Positions 3,688-9,852 of a stretch of 64,000 bases of DNA are shown piece by piece. Source of the DNA: Candidatus Limnocylindrales bacterium. Its GTDB lineage: Bacteria > Chloroflexota > Limnocylindria > Limnocylindrales > CSP1-4. The position numbers and the translations under genes were made by a program. A model generated the notes under the pieces. The model was not told the origin of the DNA and ran no database searches. It saw only the letters and a list, made by a program, of their open reading frames with translations. Location of the stretch: positions 29,864 to 93,863 of the forward strand of contig DASSHB010000031.1 in assembly GCA_035693125.1 (NCBI GenBank). Direction: 5' to 3'. Every line of letters starts with the position of its first letter. Within the stretch, counting starts at the first letter, position 1.

Positions 3688-4707
3688 TCAGCCGGCGGCG
3701 TCGTCCACGACGAGCGGCTTCCGGTAGGCGATCCCCGTCCGCGTTCGGTGGAATCCGAGCGCTTCGTAGAGCGCCACCGCACCGGTCGGGTTCTCGGCGT
3801 CGACCCCGAGGGCGGCCTCGGCGAGCCCTCGCTCGCGGAAGTCGCGCAGGGCTCGGACGATCAGCGCCGAGGCGAGGCCGCGCCGGCGCCATGGCCGGCG
3901 GACGCTGATGTGCTCGAGCCAGCCGCGCGACAGGCCGAGCGTTCGGTTCTCGTCGGGGTAGACGAAGGGCATCACCGAGCCGGCGACCTCGCCGCGATCC
4001 CACGCCACCTGCCACGTCCCCGGGTCGTTCTCGGGGATCGCGAACCAGCGCTCGTAGTCGCTTTCGAGCGGCTCGGACCGGCCCCAGTGGTCCTGGAAGG
4101 CCTCGACGTCCGCGTCCCAGATCCGGCGATGGTCGGCCGCGACGACGGGACGAACCTCGAGACCCGCCGGCAAGGGCGCATCCGGGATCGGGTCGGCGAG
4201 ATCGCGGACCATCGTGAACCCGTAGCGGATGATCTCGTAGCCCTCGCCCTCGTAGAGCGCGATCGCGCCGGCCTGGTCCGCATCGGGCCAGGAGGTGGTC
4301 ACCCGGGCACCGGTCCGGCCGTCGACGCGCGCCACCTCCGCCGAGCGGCGCTCCGTCCAGTGCAGGAGCGCCCGCCCGATGCCCTGCCGACGGACATCGG
4401 GTCGGACCCAGCCGTCGACGTGGTGGACGGCCATCCCGTCGCGGGTCCGGACATTCGTCTGGGCCGCCGCCACGAGCGCTCCGTCGATCTCGACGAGCAG
4501 GACATCGCGGCGCGGATCGAACTCGGCCAGATGCTCGAAGTCGACCCGGAGGGCCTCGGCGCCCAGGATGAACTCGACGCCATCCGCCTGGTTGGCGATC
4601 CCCATCAGCTCCGCCAGGGCCGGGTAATCCCGCCCAGGATCGAACGGCCGGGCGACGAGCCCGGGGATCGCTGGCGCGCTCGGGAGCAGGATCCGCTGGT
4701 CGATCAT
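3688..4707 (-). CDS. Double-GNAT N-acetyltransferase, mycothiol synthase (MshD)-like, copy 1
   Basis: Start is the ATG of MIDQRILL at 4707. There are two GNAT halves with RRQGIGRALL and RRRGLASALI acetyl-CoA loops, and the C-terminus is ..GVDAENPTGAVALYEALGF..AYRKPL. The longer ORF 3688..5661 is an artefactual extension. Confidence 0.8.
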   Translation of the reverse strand: MIDQRILLPSAPAIPGLVARPFDPGRDYPALAELMGIANQADGVEFILGAEALRVDFEHLAEFDPRRDVLLVEIDGALVAAAQTNVRTRDGMAVHHVDGWVRPDVRRQGIGRALLHWTERRSAEVARVDGRTGARVTTSWPDADQAGAIALYEGEGYEIIRYGFTMVRDLADPIPDAPLPAGLEVRPVVAADHRRIWDADVEAFQDHWGRSEPLESDYERWFAIPENDPGTWQVAWDRGEVAGSVMPFVYPDENRTLGLSRGWLEHISVRRPWRRRGLASALIVRALRDFRERGLAEAALGVDAENPTGAVALYEALGFHRTRTGIAYRKPLVVDDAAG

Positions 4708-5771
4708 CGGGGGTCCTCCGCTGGGCCGCCGGGCAGCGACGGCAGGGGCTTGCGATAGGCGGTGGCGCTCGAGACCTCGCGGAAGCCGCACGACTCGTAG
4801 AGCGAGAGCGCCTGATGGGGGTTGGTGAGGTCCACGCCGAGCGAGGCAGCCTCGAAGCCGCGGGCGCGGAGGACCTCGAGACTGCGGGCGATCAGCGCCC
4901 GGGCCAGTCCGCGGCGGCGCCACGGACGGCGCACGAACACCGAGTCGAGCCAGCCCTCCAGGCCGCCGTCGGGGACGTGATGGCTGACGTTCAGCACGCC
5001 GCCGGCGACCTCGTCGCCGTCGAAGGCGATGACCCACAGGTCGGGGTCGGTCTCGGGGTCCTCGACGAAGGCCGCGAACTGCTCGTCCGTCGCCTCGCTC
5101 CAGCCGAAGTGGTCGCGGAACGCCTCGGCGTCCGCGTCGAAGACCTGGCGCATCGCGGCCCGGTTGCGCGGCACCGGCCGGATCTCGAGGCCGGCCGGCA
5201 GGCCGTGCGGCTCGATCGCGTCGAGCGTGGGTCGGGTCATCGAGGCGAACCGCCGGAAGCGCTCGTAGCCGGCGTCGGCCAGCAGCGTCCGTCCGCCACG
5301 GTCGCCGTCGAACAGGAAGGTCGTCAGCCAGCGCCGGCGGTCCGCGGCCTCGCCGACGGCCGCGTGGGCGCGGGCGATCTCCAGGCGGCGCCGCTCGCTC
5401 CAGGCCAGGAGCACCGTGCCGATGCCGCGCCGGCGGGCGTCCGGATGGACGACGCCGACCGCCTCGTACCAGCGCTCGCCCTCGTTCGAGTCGTTCCATT
5501 CGACCCGGGAATAGCCCACGACCCGGCCGCCTCCCTCCGCGATGACGAGGTCGCGCTCGAGGTCCGATCGCTCGAGGTGGCGGTAATGGGTGGCGGTGCC
5601 CTCGTACGTGCCGCGGCCCAGCTCGCCGTCGGCCACGCGGGCCGCATCGGACGCCGCCCACATCGCCGGCAGGTCTGCATCGAGCCCGTGCCAGTGGCGC
5701 AGGTGGATCCCGGCCGGCACGGGGAGACCGCCCAGGTCGATCGGCTCGTTCGCCACCGGCTCGCTCGTCAT
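4704..5771 (-). CDS. Double-GNAT N-acetyltransferase, MshD-like, copy 2
   Basis: Start is the ATG of MTSEPVANEP at 5771. Motifs RRRGIGTVLL and RRRGLARALI, with C-terminus GVDLTNPHQALSLYESCGF..AYRKPL. Its stop overlaps the copy 1 start (ATGA at 4704-4707). Confidence 0.8.
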   Translation of the reverse strand: MTSEPVANEPIDLGGLPVPAGIHLRHWHGLDADLPAMWAASDAARVADGELGRGTYEGTATHYRHLERSDLERDLVIAEGGGRVVGYSRVEWNDSNEGERWYEAVGVVHPDARRRGIGTVLLAWSERRRLEIARAHAAVGEAADRRRWLTTFLFDGDRGGRTLLADAGYERFRRFASMTRPTLDAIEPHGLPAGLEIRPVPRNRAAMRQVFDADAEAFRDHFGWSEATDEQFAAFVEDPETDPDLWVIAFDGDEVAGGVLNVSHHVPDGGLEGWLDSVFVRRPWRRRGLARALIARSLEVLRARGFEAASLGVDLTNPHQALSLYESCGFREVSSATAYRKPLPSLPGGPAEDPR

Positions 5772-6874
5772 CGCCAGCCCTCGGCCCCGTACTTCGCGTC
5801 CATGTGGCCCCGGACCGACTTGTGGACCTGCTTCCATTTCCGGCGATCGGCGTTGCGGGCGAGCGCGTCGACGCGGCGTTCGTGATGGGCTGCCTCGCGG
5901 CGGAGCTTCAGCCAGCTCTCGTGCCGGTCGCCCTCGAGCGAGCCATCGGCCAGCGCCGCGGCGATCGCGCAGCCGGGCTCGCCGTGGTGACTGCAGTTCC
6001 CGAACCGGCAGCTCGTCGCCAGCTCGTCGACGTCGGCGAAGGTCCGCTCGAGGCCGTCCCCGTCCCAGAGCGCCAGCTCGCGCATCCCCGGCGTGTCGAG
6101 GACGAGGCCGCCACCGGGCAGGACGTGGAGCTGGCGGCGGGTCGTCGTGTGGCGGCCGCGCGCGTCGTCCTCGCGGATCTCCTGGGTCGCTGCGATCTCC
6201 TCGCCGGCCAGGCGGTTCAGGAGGGTCGACTTGCCGACGCCCGACGAGCCCACGAACGCTGCCGTCCGGCCCGGCCCGATCCGGCTGCGGACCTCGTCCA
6301 CGCCCCGGCCGTCGAACGAGCTCACGACGAGGACGGCGGCGCCGGCCGCCACCGATCCGACGCCGGCCACGCCCGCTTCGATGTCGGCCCCCAGGTCTGC
6401 CTTCGACAGGAGGACGACGGGCTCCGCGGCGCTCTCCCAGGCGGCCGCCACGTAGCGCTCGAGGCGGCGCAGGTTCAGATCGCCGTTCAGCGAGGCCACG
6501 ACGAAGACGACGTCGAGGTTCGCCCCGACGACCTGCGCCTCGGTCCGTCGGCCGGCCGCCTGGCGGACGAGCGCGGAACGCCGTGGCAGGACCGCGTGGA
6601 TCACGGTCTCGCCCACGATGCCGCCTTCGGTCGCCACCCAATCCCCGACGGCCGGGAAGGCCGCCGGGTCGTCCTCCGCATCGAAGCGGAGGCGGCCGCT
6701 GACCACCGCCCGCTGCTCGCCGCTCGGGCCGAGGACGACATACGACCCGCGATCTTCGGCGACGACGCGCGCCGCGGCTCGGCCGAGCGCCGCGTGCGGC
6801 TCGTGCGCCGCCGCGAACGCGTCGGTCCAGCCGAGGCGCTCCAGGCCGAAGGCGGAATCAGCGGTCTCGCTCAT
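5768..6874 (-). CDS. rsgA: Ribosome small-subunit-dependent GTPase A
   Basis: Start MSETADS at 6874. P-loop GSSGVGKSTLLN, DTPG, and the C-terminal zinc knuckle CRFGNCSHHGEPGCAI characteristic of RsgA/YjeQ. ATGA overlaps occur at both ends. Confidence 0.9.
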   Translation of the reverse strand: MSETADSAFGLERLGWTDAFAAAHEPHAALGRAAARVVAEDRGSYVVLGPSGEQRAVVSGRLRFDAEDDPAAFPAVGDWVATEGGIVGETVIHAVLPRRSALVRQAAGRRTEAQVVGANLDVVFVVASLNGDLNLRRLERYVAAAWESAAEPVVLLSKADLGADIEAGVAGVGSVAAGAAVLVVSSFDGRGVDEVRSRIGPGRTAAFVGSSGVGKSTLLNRLAGEEIAATQEIREDDARGRHTTTRRQLHVLPGGGLVLDTPGMRELALWDGDGLERTFADVDELATSCRFGNCSHHGEPGCAIAAALADGSLEGDRHESWLKLRREAAHHERRVDALARNADRRKWKQVHKSVRGHMDAKYGAEGWR

Positions 6875-7713
6875 CCGACCCGCTTCAGCTTCCCGGTCCG
6901 CTTGGCATAGCGCTCGGCCCTGCCGAACGCCCACAACCCGAACGGGATGAGGAACGCGCCCATCAGGAGCAGCGGCCAGACATCGCCGAGCAGCGCCGTC
7001 ACCGGCGCGCCGTCGATCAGGCCCTTGCGGACACCGTCCAGGACGTACGTCGCCGGCGAGAGCCGCGAAAGGACCTGCATCCAGCCCGGCAGGACGTTGA
7101 TCGAGTAGTACACGCCGCTCACGAGCAGCAGGCACGACTGGAGGACGAACGTCATCTGCGCCCCCCGCTCGACGTAGAGCAGCGGCAGGATCGCGGCGAT
7201 CATCCCGATCCCGACGAAGCTGAACGAGCCGAGGAGCATGAACGCCACGACGGTCAGCGGGTTCGCCCCGTGGACGTCGAGCTGCGGGAAGAACAGGACG
7301 AGCACGACGAGGATCGCGGTCGTGTGGACGAGCCCGTAGACCATCGCGTACAGGACCGATCCAAGCAGCTGCGACCAGCGCCGGATCGGCGCCATCATCG
7401 TGTACTCGAGCGTCCCTTCCCAGCGCTCCACGCTGATCGTCTCGGCGATCCAGCTGAAGACCACCGACAGGTAGTTCCAGAAGATCGCCCCGACCATCAG
7501 GAGGAGGATCAGGCGAGGGCTGCCCTGGTCGGCCCCGATCAGCGAGATGCTCAGGGCGCCCGCCACCGAATAGACCAGGAACGCGAGCTCCCAGCCCCAG
7601 TAGCGGCGCGTCAGGAAGAAGTTGCGCTCGATGAAGGCGTACGACGCCTTCAGCTCGTGACCGAGGGACAGCATCGGGGTGCTCCGGATGGGGGAGCGTG
7701 CCCGGTCGCTCAC
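6871..7713 (-). CDS. ABC-2 type transporter permease
   Basis: 280-aa ORF with about six hydrophobic segments (..LAFLVYSVAGALSISLIG.., ..LLLMVGAIFWNYL.., ..AILVVLVLFFP.., ..FMLLGSFSFVGIGMIAAILPLL..). Its GTG start overlaps the stop of the upstream small ORF (GTGA at 7710-7713). Confidence 0.85.
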   Translation of the reverse strand: MSDRARSPIRSTPMLSLGHELKASYAFIERNFFLTRRYWGWELAFLVYSVAGALSISLIGADQGSPRLILLLMVGAIFWNYLSVVFSWIAETISVERWEGTLEYTMMAPIRRWSQLLGSVLYAMVYGLVHTTAILVVLVLFFPQLDVHGANPLTVVAFMLLGSFSFVGIGMIAAILPLLYVERGAQMTFVLQSCLLLVSGVYYSINVLPGWMQVLSRLSPATYVLDGVRKGLIDGAPVTALLGDVWPLLLMGAFLIPFGLWAFGRAERYAKRTGKLKRVG

Positions 7714-7904
7714 CGCGACCGGGCCAGCTCGTAGGAACCCGGGTCACCCGCCAGGCGGGTGCCCAGACGGACGATCGACGTGCCGATCGCACGCCGGATC
7801 GAGGACCGCGTCGCTTGGAACCGGCGGGCGTCGTTCGCCCGACGAATGTCCTCCGCGCGCAGCGCCTGGATCAGCCACAGCTGATCGTTCTGAAAGCTCT
7901 GCAT
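7710..7904 (-). CDS. Small hypothetical protein (64 aa) between the ABC ATPase and the permease
   Basis: ATG at 7904 preceded by AGGAGGTGAG (strong SD). Product is MQSFQNDQLWLIQALRAEDIRRANDARRFQATRSSIRRAIGTSIVRLGTRLAGDPGSYELARSR. It is coupled to the permease by a 4-nt overlap, and I recognise no family. Confidence 0.55.
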   Translation of the reverse strand: MQSFQNDQLWLIQALRAEDIRRANDARRFQATRSSIRRAIGTSIVRLGTRLAGDPGSYELARSR

Positions 7905-7921
7905 CTCGTTCTCACCTCCTT

Positions 7922-8815
<894 letters not shown>

Positions 8816-8866
8816 AGGGGTGACTCCTACGTGTCGCGGTTGCCCGCTGGAACCCACGGAATCGAA

Positions 8867-8902
8867 CGAGCCGTGGACCTCGTCGGTTGGGTCCACGGCT
8901 CG
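8867..8902 (-). promoter_or_regulatory. Perfect 13-bp hairpin in the 5' leader of the ABC exporter operon
   Basis: CGAGCCGTGGACC (8867-8879) and GGTCCACGGCTCG (8890-8902) form a perfect inverted repeat with a 10-nt loop. On the - strand it is followed by TTCGATT. A third near-identical copy lies at 8944-8956. Confidence 0.5.
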
Positions 8903-8922
8903 GGGATGCCTCGCGAGGCATC

Positions 8923-8953
8923 AAAAAAGCCGGGGGCCCGTCTGGCCCACGGC
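8923..8953 (-). terminator. Intrinsic terminator-like hairpin plus T6 inside the exporter leader
   Basis: The - strand reads GCCGTGGGCC-AGACG-GGCCCCCGGC (10 bp with one mismatch) followed by TTTTTT. The A6 run at 8923-8928 on the + strand is conspicuous in this GC-rich DNA. Confidence 0.6.
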
Positions 8954-8989
8954 TCGTGGTTCGCTCGGTGGCGGGTTACCGCCTCAGGG

Positions 8990-9073
8990 CTAGCTCGAGA
9001 TGGGCACAGATCTCCCGCCATCGACGGCGCCGATGGGCGCGGTCGCGGGCCGGAAGAGCAGGTGGTTCATCAT
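8990..9073 (-). CDS. 27-codon sORF (leader peptide or small-peptide gene)
   Basis: ATGATG at 9073/9070 with GGAGGA 9 nt upstream. Product MMNHLLFRPATAPIGAVDGGRSVPISS, TAG stop at 8990-8992. It is below the ORF-track size cut-off and was found by hand translation. Confidence 0.4.
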   Translation of the reverse strand: MMNHLLFRPATAPIGAVDGGRSVPISS

Positions 9074-9128
9074 TCGGAGTCGTCCTCCGGGAGCCAGATG
9101 AGGGCGGGCGATCTGCACGCCGGCGCGC

Positions 9129-9158
9129 AGTCTACGCGTCGCGTCGCGAGGCCGTCAA
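9129..9158 (-). promoter_or_regulatory. Candidate sigma-70/SigA-type promoter for the sORF and exporter leader
   Basis: The - strand reads TTGACG (9158-9153), an 18-nt spacer, then TAGACT (9134-9129). It lies about 70 nt downstream of the GNAT stop and about 55 nt upstream of the sORF ATG. Confidence 0.5.
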
Positions 9159-9228
9159 CCGGGCGGAATGACGACCGCCGGGCCGCGACGAATGACGTAG
9201 GCGCGGCTCTGCGAGCGGTGCGAACGGG

Positions 9229-9852
9229 TCAGGCGTCTCGGCGAACGGTCACGCGGCGGACGGTCGACTGCGGCGAATCGACCGCCTGGACGACACGGAA
9301 CCCGGCCGCCTCGAACGTCGAGAGGAGGCCGGTGTAGCCGAGCGCCGCGGGGACCCGGGCGTTACCCGGATCCACGGGATACGCCTCGAGGGCGGGCGCG
9401 CCGTGATCGCGGGCGTAGGCCGAAGCCGCGTCGAGGAGCAACGTCGTCAGACCGCGGCCGCGGGCCGCCTTCGAGACGACGAAGCAGACGATCGACCAGA
9501 CCGGCGTGTCGTCGATGGGCGGCCGGACCTTGGAGTGGACCAGGCGCTGGTAGTCCGCTCGCGGCGCGACGCTGACCCAGCCAACGGGGCGGCCGTCCTC
9601 GTACGCAAGGAGCCCCGGGGCCGGGTCACGACCCTCGTTGACGAGGCGGTGGAGCCCGTCGCGGGCCTCGCCGGCGGTGCCGAACGACCAGTCCTTCGAG
9701 CGGAGTCGCCAGAACATGCACCAGCAGGTCTTCGGGTCGCCACCCTCGCCGAAGAGCGTCGCGACGTCGTCCCAGCGCGCGGCTGTCAACGGGACGATCT
9801 CGACGGCGGCGGCGTCGAGGGGCTCACGCGGTGGAGCGCTGCGGGCCGGCAT
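9229..9852 (-). CDS. GNAT family N-acetyltransferase (CWC-motif subgroup)
   Basis: 207-aa ORF with ..DPKTCWCMFWR.., PGLLAYEDGRPVGWVSV, DDTPVWSIVCFVVSKAARGRGL and GAPALEAYPVDP. It is a clear paralogue of 61583..62197. Confidence 0.85.
   Translation of the reverse strand: MPARSAPPREPLDAAAVEIVPLTAARWDDVATLFGEGGDPKTCWCMFWRLRSKDWSFGTAGEARDGLHRLVNEGRDPAPGLLAYEDGRPVGWVSVAPRADYQRLVHSKVRPPIDDTPVWSIVCFVVSKAARGRGLTTLLLDAASAYARDHGAPALEAYPVDPGNARVPAALGYTGLLSTFEAAGFRVVQAVDSPQSTVRRVTVRRDA

Follow-up and report, generated by a model that had tools for sequence, protein, structure and literature searches.

In a 64-kb stretch of DNA from a Candidatus Limnocylindrales bacterium (contig DASSHB010000031.1, positions 29,864 to 93,863; 72.8% G+C, hereafter the window), the genes of a DrrAB-like ABC-2 exporter on the minus strand are preceded by a long intergenic region that carries a candidate transcription attenuator. 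The uncultured Candidatus Limnocylindria are abundant in both soils and freshwater; to our knowledge, gene regulation in the class has not been described. The region begins behind a GNAT acetyltransferase gene on the minus strand, which ends at 9229. A preliminary description, made from the letters of the window, had listed a promoter, a ribosome-binding site with a short open reading frame, several hairpins, a terminator with six T residues, a palindrome and the AGGAG-GTG start of the ABC ATPase gene; all of these lie on the minus strand at the positions it had given. The features on which the argument depends are as follows.

9129-9158, minus strand: predicted promoter, recognised from a sigma-70-like pattern and its conservation (-35 box TTGACG, 9158-9153; 18-nt spacer; -10 box TAGACT, 9134-9129)
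9083-9088, minus strand: Shine-Dalgarno (SD) sequence GGAGGA (9088-9083) of the leader reading frame, 9 nt before its ATG
8990-9073, minus strand: leader short open reading frame (sORF), MMNHLLFRPATAPIGAVDGGRSVPISS, 27 codons from the ATG at 9073, then the stop codon TAG (8992-8990)
8996-9012, minus strand: predicted antiterminator 5′ strand, GAUCUG(U)GCCCAUCUCG, which is codons 21-26 of the sORF (AGA UCU GUG CCC AUC UCG), that is, the conserved block A described below plus the next two codons
8940-8956, minus strand: predicted antiterminator 3′ strand, CGAG(CC)GUGGGCCAGAC, which is the entire 5′ arm and loop of terminator T1 and pairs with 9012-8996
8923-8955, minus strand: predicted intrinsic terminator T1, an 11-bp G+C stem with one U x C mismatch, then U6
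8813-8828, minus strand: SD sequence AGGAG (8828-8824) and start codon GTG (8815-8813) of the ABC ATPase gene, with 8 nt between them
6871-8815, minus strand: the putatively regulated operon, comprising the ABC ATPase, an open reading frame (ORF) of 64-71 amino acids and the ABC-2 permease
8815-7922, minus strand: ABC ATPase (Pfam ABC_tran)
7713-6871, minus strand: ABC-2 permease (Pfam ABC2_membrane)

Conservation in relatives and metagenomes

A scan for the ABC ATPase, taking one genome per species, returned 80 loci at 70-89% protein identity, nearly all of them from Candidatus Limnocylindria or Limnocylindrales (Chloroflexota). When the 415-nt intergenic region was compared by blastn, essentially all relatives matched it from the -10 box through the T tract at 70-87% DNA identity, although the ATPase protein next to it is itself only 70-89% identical. 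All 79 loci for which upstream DNA was available contain an invariant block, GGGAGATCTGYGCCC (block A), followed by T1. Conservation of the sORF and hairpins in relatives had been named in the preliminary description as a check on its reading, and the check came out positively, with the leader in 79 of 79 loci and compensatory changes in its helices. As judged from these comparisons, the features of the leader are more than chance.

About 75 further elements from metagenomes carry the leader, which brings the total to roughly 150 uncultured soil Chloroflexota. Scanning metagenome contigs with a degenerate pattern gave 120 stretches, of which 86 have the ATPase directly downstream and 13 are too short to judge; the rest consist of about 17 chance matches lacking a terminator or stop codon and four real elements. 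One of the four (L170) precedes a frameshifted ATPase, another (L116) lies on a contig that ends 10 nt past the match, and two (L103 and L148) have no ATPase downstream. These last two (L103 at 9216-9420) have block A and a T1-like hairpin and lack the stop codon at +3, the downstream hairpin H2 described below and the ABC ATPase; they may be a diverged or decayed variant, or assembly chimeras. Two bins labelled Methylomirabilota and Zixiibacteriota (L011 and L030) also carry the locus, with an ATPase 78-80% identical to the query, and their contigs are probably mis-binned.

The leader matches no Rfam family. A check against Rfam had been suggested, and with Rfam 15 there was no match at gathering score in the window, nor on the leader in 16 diverse relatives. 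The best sub-threshold match, to Xoo2, scores 29 bits against a cut-off of 45 and covers only a small hairpin (hairpin C, below) and the terminator; we rejected this identity, the weak match being that of a generic hairpin plus terminator. Full-text literature searches found no description of the leader, and the ten papers ranked best in one of them make no mention of Limnocylindria.

A conserved reading frame

An SD sequence (GGAGG, GGAG or GAGG) followed by an ATG is found in 143 of 155 distinct elements, and in 136 of those 143 that ATG, the first to follow the SD, shares its frame with block A and the stop codon; chance alone would give about 48. The distance from the ATG to block A varies from 17 to 25 codons in whole-codon steps, meaning that insertions and deletions keep the frame. 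The stop codon stands exactly three codons (9 nt) past block A in 139 of 151 distinct elements (TAG 114, TGA 22, TAA 3), and the distance from there to T1 is 31-38 nt in 137 of the 139. In the variable N-terminal codons the G+C content at third positions (GC3) is 0.85-0.96, compared to 0.2-0.5 at second positions (GC2), a pattern that corresponds to the three-base periodicity of translated sequence in a high-G+C genome. Since the frame is kept despite the changes in length, GC3 is near 0.9 and the stop is fixed in place with interchangeable codons, the comparison indicates that the sORF is maintained as a true reading frame.

Synonymous variants of the core codons GGG AGA TCT GTG CCC are essentially absent, with a GC3 of 0.04 for AGA and TCT. 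This lack of synonymous change is explained by their pairing with an arm of T1, and these codons appear to be constrained as RNA, not as protein. The sole hint of selection on the peptide is a switch of serine codons at position +6 (TCG in 65, AGC in 5). The peptide has no Pfam match, and it is not known to fit any lasso, lanthipeptide or arrest-peptide motif.

The terminator and its competitor

T1 (5′ arm 8955-8944, 3′ arm 8938-8928, T6 at 8928-8923) is present together with its U tract in 79 of 79 loci, and in an alignment of 79 sequences (A1) 97.5% of the cells of its stem are paired. Termination at this site is predicted from the hairpin and U tract. The preliminary description had called the T6 very conspicuous, and rightly, as it is the only run of at least five T on either strand of the whole window. 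The same count suggests that canonical U-rich intrinsic terminators are almost unused for this organism's ordinary genes.

The competitor of T1 lies upstream of it, in the six codons (21-26) that precede the final sense codon of the sORF. This antiterminator helix has 16 pairs, formed in 92.4% of cells in A1, and 7 of the 16 have changed on both sides; when one strand is slid by 1-3 columns as a control, pairing falls to 31-46%. Cognate strands out-pair non-cognate ones in 2000 of 2000 permutations, a count which, like those of the other permutation tests below, ignores phylogeny and is not to be read as a probability. A negative control (segment 3 with segment 6) and the slid columns speak against relatedness as the source of the signal. 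The duplex is predicted in every locus. The loop of T1 covaries with block A, the majority class being GAUCUG:CAGAUC, with GAUCCG:CGGAUC as a second class, GAUCUG:CGGAUC and GAUUUG:CAGAUC as G-U classes, and further compensatory classes in a clade with a different loop (GGUG:CACC) and in metagenomes (GGUCUG:CGGACC). A plain terminator has no reason to conserve the sequence of its loop.

Folding of the window's leader is in line with such a switch. Cut off at 8939, the nascent RNA has the antiterminator helix in its minimum free energy (MFE) structure, the full leader folds with T1 at -92.8 kcal/mol compared to -84.7 kcal/mol with the antiterminator forced, and T1 stays intact when a ribosome footprint is masked at the sORF stop codon. 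Modelled in this way, the RNA ends thermodynamically in T1, with the antiterminator as a kinetic trap like those of known attenuators. RNAalifold on the whole alignment recovered T1 alone, and the antiterminator helix needed to be specified explicitly.

The preliminary description had looked for the competitor of T1 on the other side, in a hairpin downstream of the terminator.

8855-8902, minus strand: hairpin H2 (8902-8867), a perfect 13-bp stem (8902-8890 with 8879-8867), and its U-enriched tail

It proposed that T1 and H2 are mutually exclusive, the H2 3′ arm (8879-8867) pairing with a near-identical copy of its usual partner inside the T1 5′ arm (8956-8944). The near-copy is there, and the two segments are 93% complementary over 14 nt in the window, with a mean duplex energy of about -20 kcal/mol across loci. 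Its proposed role did not survive the comparison, because cognate arms have no advantage (1325 of 2000 permutations do as well), the H2 arms pair better with each other (-23 kcal/mol, with 0 of 2000 permutations as good), and the H2 3′ arm is made about 50 nt after the U tract, too late to stop termination at T1. We give this pairing almost no chance of being the antiterminator.

Another explanation accepts that the switch between T1 and the antiterminator is real and supposes that it is set by a ligand or an RNA-binding protein, with translation of the sORF incidental. The very high nucleotide conservation of block A, of the hairpin C stem and of both T1 arms would suit a binding site, and T1 and H2 both start with GAGCCG, a possible protein site. 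Yet in the region enclosed by the antiterminator the linkers and the hairpin loop vary and there is no conserved junction core, no Rfam family is matched in the window or in the 16 relatives, and the SD, ATG, frame, stop position and GC3 periodicity are all kept, none of which an untranslated aptamer needs. We consider a switch of this kind unlikely.

A single predicted promoter for leader and exporter

The predicted promoter is the sole sigma-70-like match in 3 kb, where 0.1 would be expected, and a sequence of the form TTGAC[AG]-N18-TA[GC]ACT stands at the equivalent place in 75 of 76 loci. Its predicted transcription start is near 9122. Applied to the stretch from T1 to the ABC start, which totals 10.9 kb over the 76 loci, the same criteria give no promoter-like site, and the exporter genes would therefore depend on read-through from the leader promoter, a single promoter (9158-9129) that would drive a leader of about 300 nt.

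Just 5′ of the -35 box, at 9159-9197 on the minus strand, lies a direct repeat, CGTCATTC(C/G), in two copies 24 nt apart, and the copy adjoining the box (..GTCGTCATYCG..) is kept in many relatives. It could be a transcription-factor site that adds control at the level of the promoter, or else the conserved 3′ end of an ORF lying further upstream, whose stop codon would be the TGA within TTGACG.

Assemblies of environmental RNA libraries contain the leader. About two dozen metatranscriptome assemblies from soil, sediment and ice contain 9-13% of the sampled words of a leader-plus-ATPase query, and contigs from four runs span the conserved core (8883-9022), which in two cases (X25 record 1 and X29 record 7) is joined to the ABC ORF. 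The joined contigs fit co-transcription of leader and exporter.

The presence of a complete promoter, SD, ORF and strong terminator, together with the leader core in many soil metatranscriptome assemblies, could also be read as an independent small gene, for a 27-amino-acid peptide or a small RNA whose product acts elsewhere or is exported, with the exporter expressed from constitutive leak through T1; the version with an exported peptide was the second reading of the preliminary description. There is precedent for action in trans by liberated attenuator RNAs, of which rnTrpL is an example (PMC6614838). What speaks against such a gene is that its most conserved codons are fixed at the nucleotide level and covary with the T1 loop, which neither a peptide nor a plain terminator needs, and that the exporter has no promoter of its own in 76 loci. 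Apart from the exceptions L103 and L148, the element is not seen away from the exporter operon. As to a ribosomally synthesised and post-translationally modified peptide, or some other exported precursor, there is no tolerance of synonymous change, no independent exporter promoter, and there are no maturation enzymes beside the leader for a peptide that lacks a Pfam match; the Pfam domains of the window place only GNAT acetyltransferases and ABC genes next to it. An independent gene is thus disfavoured, and in our estimation very unlikely.

A proposed ribosome-dependent attenuator

We propose that the leader is probably a ribosome-dependent (leader-peptide) transcription attenuator of the DrrAB-like ABC-2 exporter operon. 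The structural marks of such attenuators are present, namely a conserved short ORF with an SD, a terminator behind a sole promoter, and an antiterminator that a ribosome can mask. An attenuator gating the exporter was the first of the two readings offered in the preliminary description, and it gains from the comparison, in which promoter, SD, ATG, frame, stop and terminator are kept, a second promoter is missing and the strands of an antiterminator, which that description had been unable to resolve, covary. The promoter, the frame of the sORF, the terminator, the antiterminator pairing and the lack of another promoter are thus borne out by comparative sequence analysis, while the direction of the switch and the coupling of transcription to translation in this organism are what we infer from them.

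In the OFF state, a ribosome following close behind RNA polymerase would reach the sORF stop codon and cover 9012-8996 without being able to reach T1, about 35 nt further on; T1 would then fold and transcription would end in a short leader RNA of about 200 nt. In the ON state, a ribosome that is delayed or stalled in the first 15 or so codons, or that has not loaded, would leave the antiterminator strand free to capture the emerging T1 5′ arm before the 3′ arm is made. With T1 blocked in this way, polymerase would continue into the genes for the ATPase, the small ORF and the permease.

The physiological input is possibly slowed translation, such as that caused by ribosome-targeting antibiotics in soil, a suggestion made by analogy and offered tentatively. 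General slowing of translation is our most economical guess, and it fits a DrrAB-like exporter. The term drug-inducible, which the preliminary description had used for such operons, is likewise an analogy here.

Several points weigh against the attenuator as proposed. The case as a whole consists of sequence comparison and thermodynamic folding, and with crude truncation the MFE structure of the nascent RNA holds at least six antiterminator pairs in only 40 of 76 loci. Among the candidate helices tested across loci no convincing anti-antiterminator was found, and the model consequently predicts read-through when there is no translation, unlike trp or bmrB. The sORF shows neither a run of one amino acid nor an arrest motif that we could recognise, and its conserved residues (R, AP.G, GRS[VA]P.S) mostly coincide with RNA-paired nucleotides, so that their conservation need not reflect selection on the peptide. 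The very stable H2 would form in read-through RNA, and were it an efficient terminator the model would be incomplete. The RNA evidence comes from assembled metatranscriptome (Logan) contigs, which have no defined 5′ or 3′ ends and may include DNA carry-over, and we know of no study of transcription-translation coupling in Chloroflexota.

Two anti-antiterminator candidates were considered and rejected. The first would pair the 5′ hairpin with the start of the antiterminator strand (9100-9115 with 9007-9022; 16 nt, 88% complementary, -29.9 kcal/mol) and is present in the window and in its closest relatives, but covariation gives it no support across the family, where 300 of 2000 permutations reach the same level. 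The second, UCUUCCG:CGGGAGA (9057-9051 with 9017-9011), has 75% of its cells paired, shows little covariation and overlaps the antiterminator by only 2 nt.

Comparison with known attenuators

One close parallel is with bmrB-bmrCD of Bacillus subtilis, where translation slowed by lincomycin, chloramphenicol or erythromycin leads to a weaker antiterminator and rare codons tune the decision (PMC4191407). Both have a single promoter, a short translated leader ORF and a terminator before ABC exporter genes (PMC4191407), and in both a less stable antiterminator forms on slowed translation, as predicted here by folding. Rare codons also occur in both leaders, here AGA and UCU in a genome with GC3 near 0.9. 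The two are unrelated in sequence, and bmrB is 162 bp long with the terminator within its coding region, whereas the present sORF stops about 35 nt before T1. The exporters are also different, bmrCD being a fused half-transporter pair and ours an ABC-2 (DrrAB-like) system. Loss of translation raises termination in bmrB, while folding predicts the opposite here, and antibiotic induction, shown for bmrB, is in our case an analogy drawn from sequence alone.

A second parallel is found in the trpL, hisL, pheL and leuL leaders of Enterobacteria, in which a ribosome at the stop codon masks segment 2 and allows the 3:4 terminator, while a stall upstream allows the 2:3 antiterminator. As in these attenuators, the stop codon comes just after the antiterminator strand. 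Unlike them, the present leader has no tandem regulatory codons for one amino acid and no supported 1:2 anti-antiterminator, and it precedes an exporter rather than a biosynthetic pathway.

Antibiotic-sensing leader peptides of the msrDL, ermCL and vmlR type (e.g. PMC10314930) are also encoded by a short ORF in front of a resistance-type ATPase gene, and whether a terminator further on can form depends on a ribosome located towards the end of that ORF. A ribosome stalled there by the drug blocks the terminator directly or exposes an SD, and the downstream gene encodes an ABC-F factor or methylase. Here the gene is for a membrane exporter, there is no known arrest motif, and with a ribosome at the stop codon, which is about 35 nt from T1, the model expects termination to be favoured. 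In antibiotic-inducible resistance leaders as a class (erm, cat, bmrB, msrDL, vmlR) the gene that follows is a resistance determinant whose expression a ribosome-targeting drug induces, whereas the exporter genes here match DrrA and DrrB at scores below the curated cut-offs.

Taken on its sequence, the leader belongs with the leader-peptide transcription attenuators, as a previously undescribed example and not as a new regulatory principle. What it adds is a set of about 150 natural variants of one attenuator with clear compensatory changes, which would be direct sequence evidence for ribosome-coupled transcription attenuation in this class of Chloroflexota. They make a ready-made family for a covariance model and annotation, there being none in Rfam, and they mark the DrrAB-like exporter, conserved across the class, as a candidate for conditional expression, probably responsive to stress or antibiotics.

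Other hairpins of the leader

In addition to T1 and H2, the leader contains four more hairpins.

9103-9121, minus strand: 5′-terminal hairpin of the leader RNA, present in the MFE fold
9027-9040, minus strand: small hairpin within the sORF, GCGCC-CAUC-GGCGC, with compensatory changes
8970-8983, minus strand: hairpin C, GGCGG-UAAC-CCGCC, 7 nt past the stop codon and within the antiterminator helix
8905-8922, minus strand: hairpin P, a perfect 18-nt palindrome directly after the U tract

The three hairpins upstream of T1 are each backed by compensatory changes in A1. Hairpin C (columns 197-202 with 207-212) has 93% of cells paired and 5 of 6 pairs changed on both sides, the 5′-terminal hairpin (columns 20-27 with 33-39) has 80% and 5 of 6, and the hairpin within the sORF (columns 138-142 with 147-151) has 81% and 3 of 5. 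An SD-sequestering hairpin (GGAG:CUCC) was rejected, as 72% of its cells are paired and it is not kept in distant clades.

Downstream of T1, the sequence and length of the hairpin P region vary among relatives while its folding is kept (median z -2.65, with z < -2 in 67% of loci), and its base helix changes from GAUGCC..GGCAUC to GAUGUC..GACAUC in one relative (L074). H2 is found in 147 of 157 distinct elements with a median dG of -30.7 kcal/mol and z of -4.6, the 13-bp hairpin of the window being a short version of a very stable and universal structure. Its outer stem is GAGCCGYG/CRCGGCUC, in which position 7 pairs as C-G in 114, U-G in 22 and U-A in 7, and its tail is 38% U compared to 15% across the leader; it could itself act as a weak terminator, the second of the leader. 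Its arms are similar to those of T1, and the 13-mer CGAGCCGTGGRCC occurs in three exact copies, all in the leader and nowhere else in the 64 kb. P and H2, which both stand between T1 and the ATPase start codon, are parts of the leader.

One further arrangement would link H2 to the switch. If the antiterminator holds the T1 5′ arm, the T1 3′ arm (segment 4) could pair with the H2 5′ arm (segment 5), with P at the tip of the helix. This pairing is thermodynamically favoured in 68 of 76 loci when the antiterminator is forced, and cognate arms pair slightly better than non-cognate ones (equalled in 4 of 2000 permutations); against it, H2 exceeds it in stability by about 12 kcal/mol and might replace it. 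We regard such a relay as doubtful, though if true it would give a back-up terminator that is disarmed only in transcripts legitimately past T1, and would account for the preservation of near-copy arms in T1 and H2 across about 150 genomes. As an optional addition to the relay, the nascent peptide could set the timing of the switch, if its conserved C-terminus, GRS[VA]PxS[SR]-stop, caused a pause at termination.

The exporter operon and its neighbours

The start region of the ABC ATPase, GTGACCGC, is kept among relatives, and the permease follows the ATPase in 76 loci. The best NCBIfam matches of ATPase and permease are DrrA and DrrB, each under its curated cut-off (215 compared to 312 bits, and 52 compared to 223 bits), and on this account we call the transporter a generic DrrAB-like ABC-2 exporter, scores below the cut-off assigning no substrate.

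The apparent gap between ATPase and permease is occupied by the ORF of 64-71 amino acids (7710-7925, minus strand, from 7925 or 7904 to 7710), which reads MKGGENE-MQSFQNDQLWLIQALRAEDIRRANDARRFQ...ARSR. Its first ATG overlaps the ATPase stop codon (ATGA), a second ATG at 7904 has a strong GGAGG, and its stop codon overlaps the permease GTG (GTGA). Six close relatives align with the gap from end to end at 74-85% DNA identity, and remoter ones only at its ends. The ORF has no Pfam match, and its product would probably be a further exporter component, either a third subunit that has escaped annotation or a partner protein.

No tRNA or tmRNA genes were found in the window. On the 3′ side of the permease, also on the minus strand, lie an ORF with an RsgA-type GTPase domain (5768-6870) and a long ORF with two GNAT domains (3688-5661). 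In 59 relatives a match to this GNAT ORF lies behind the exporter in the same orientation, and the GNAT gene upstream of the leader is syntenic in 41.

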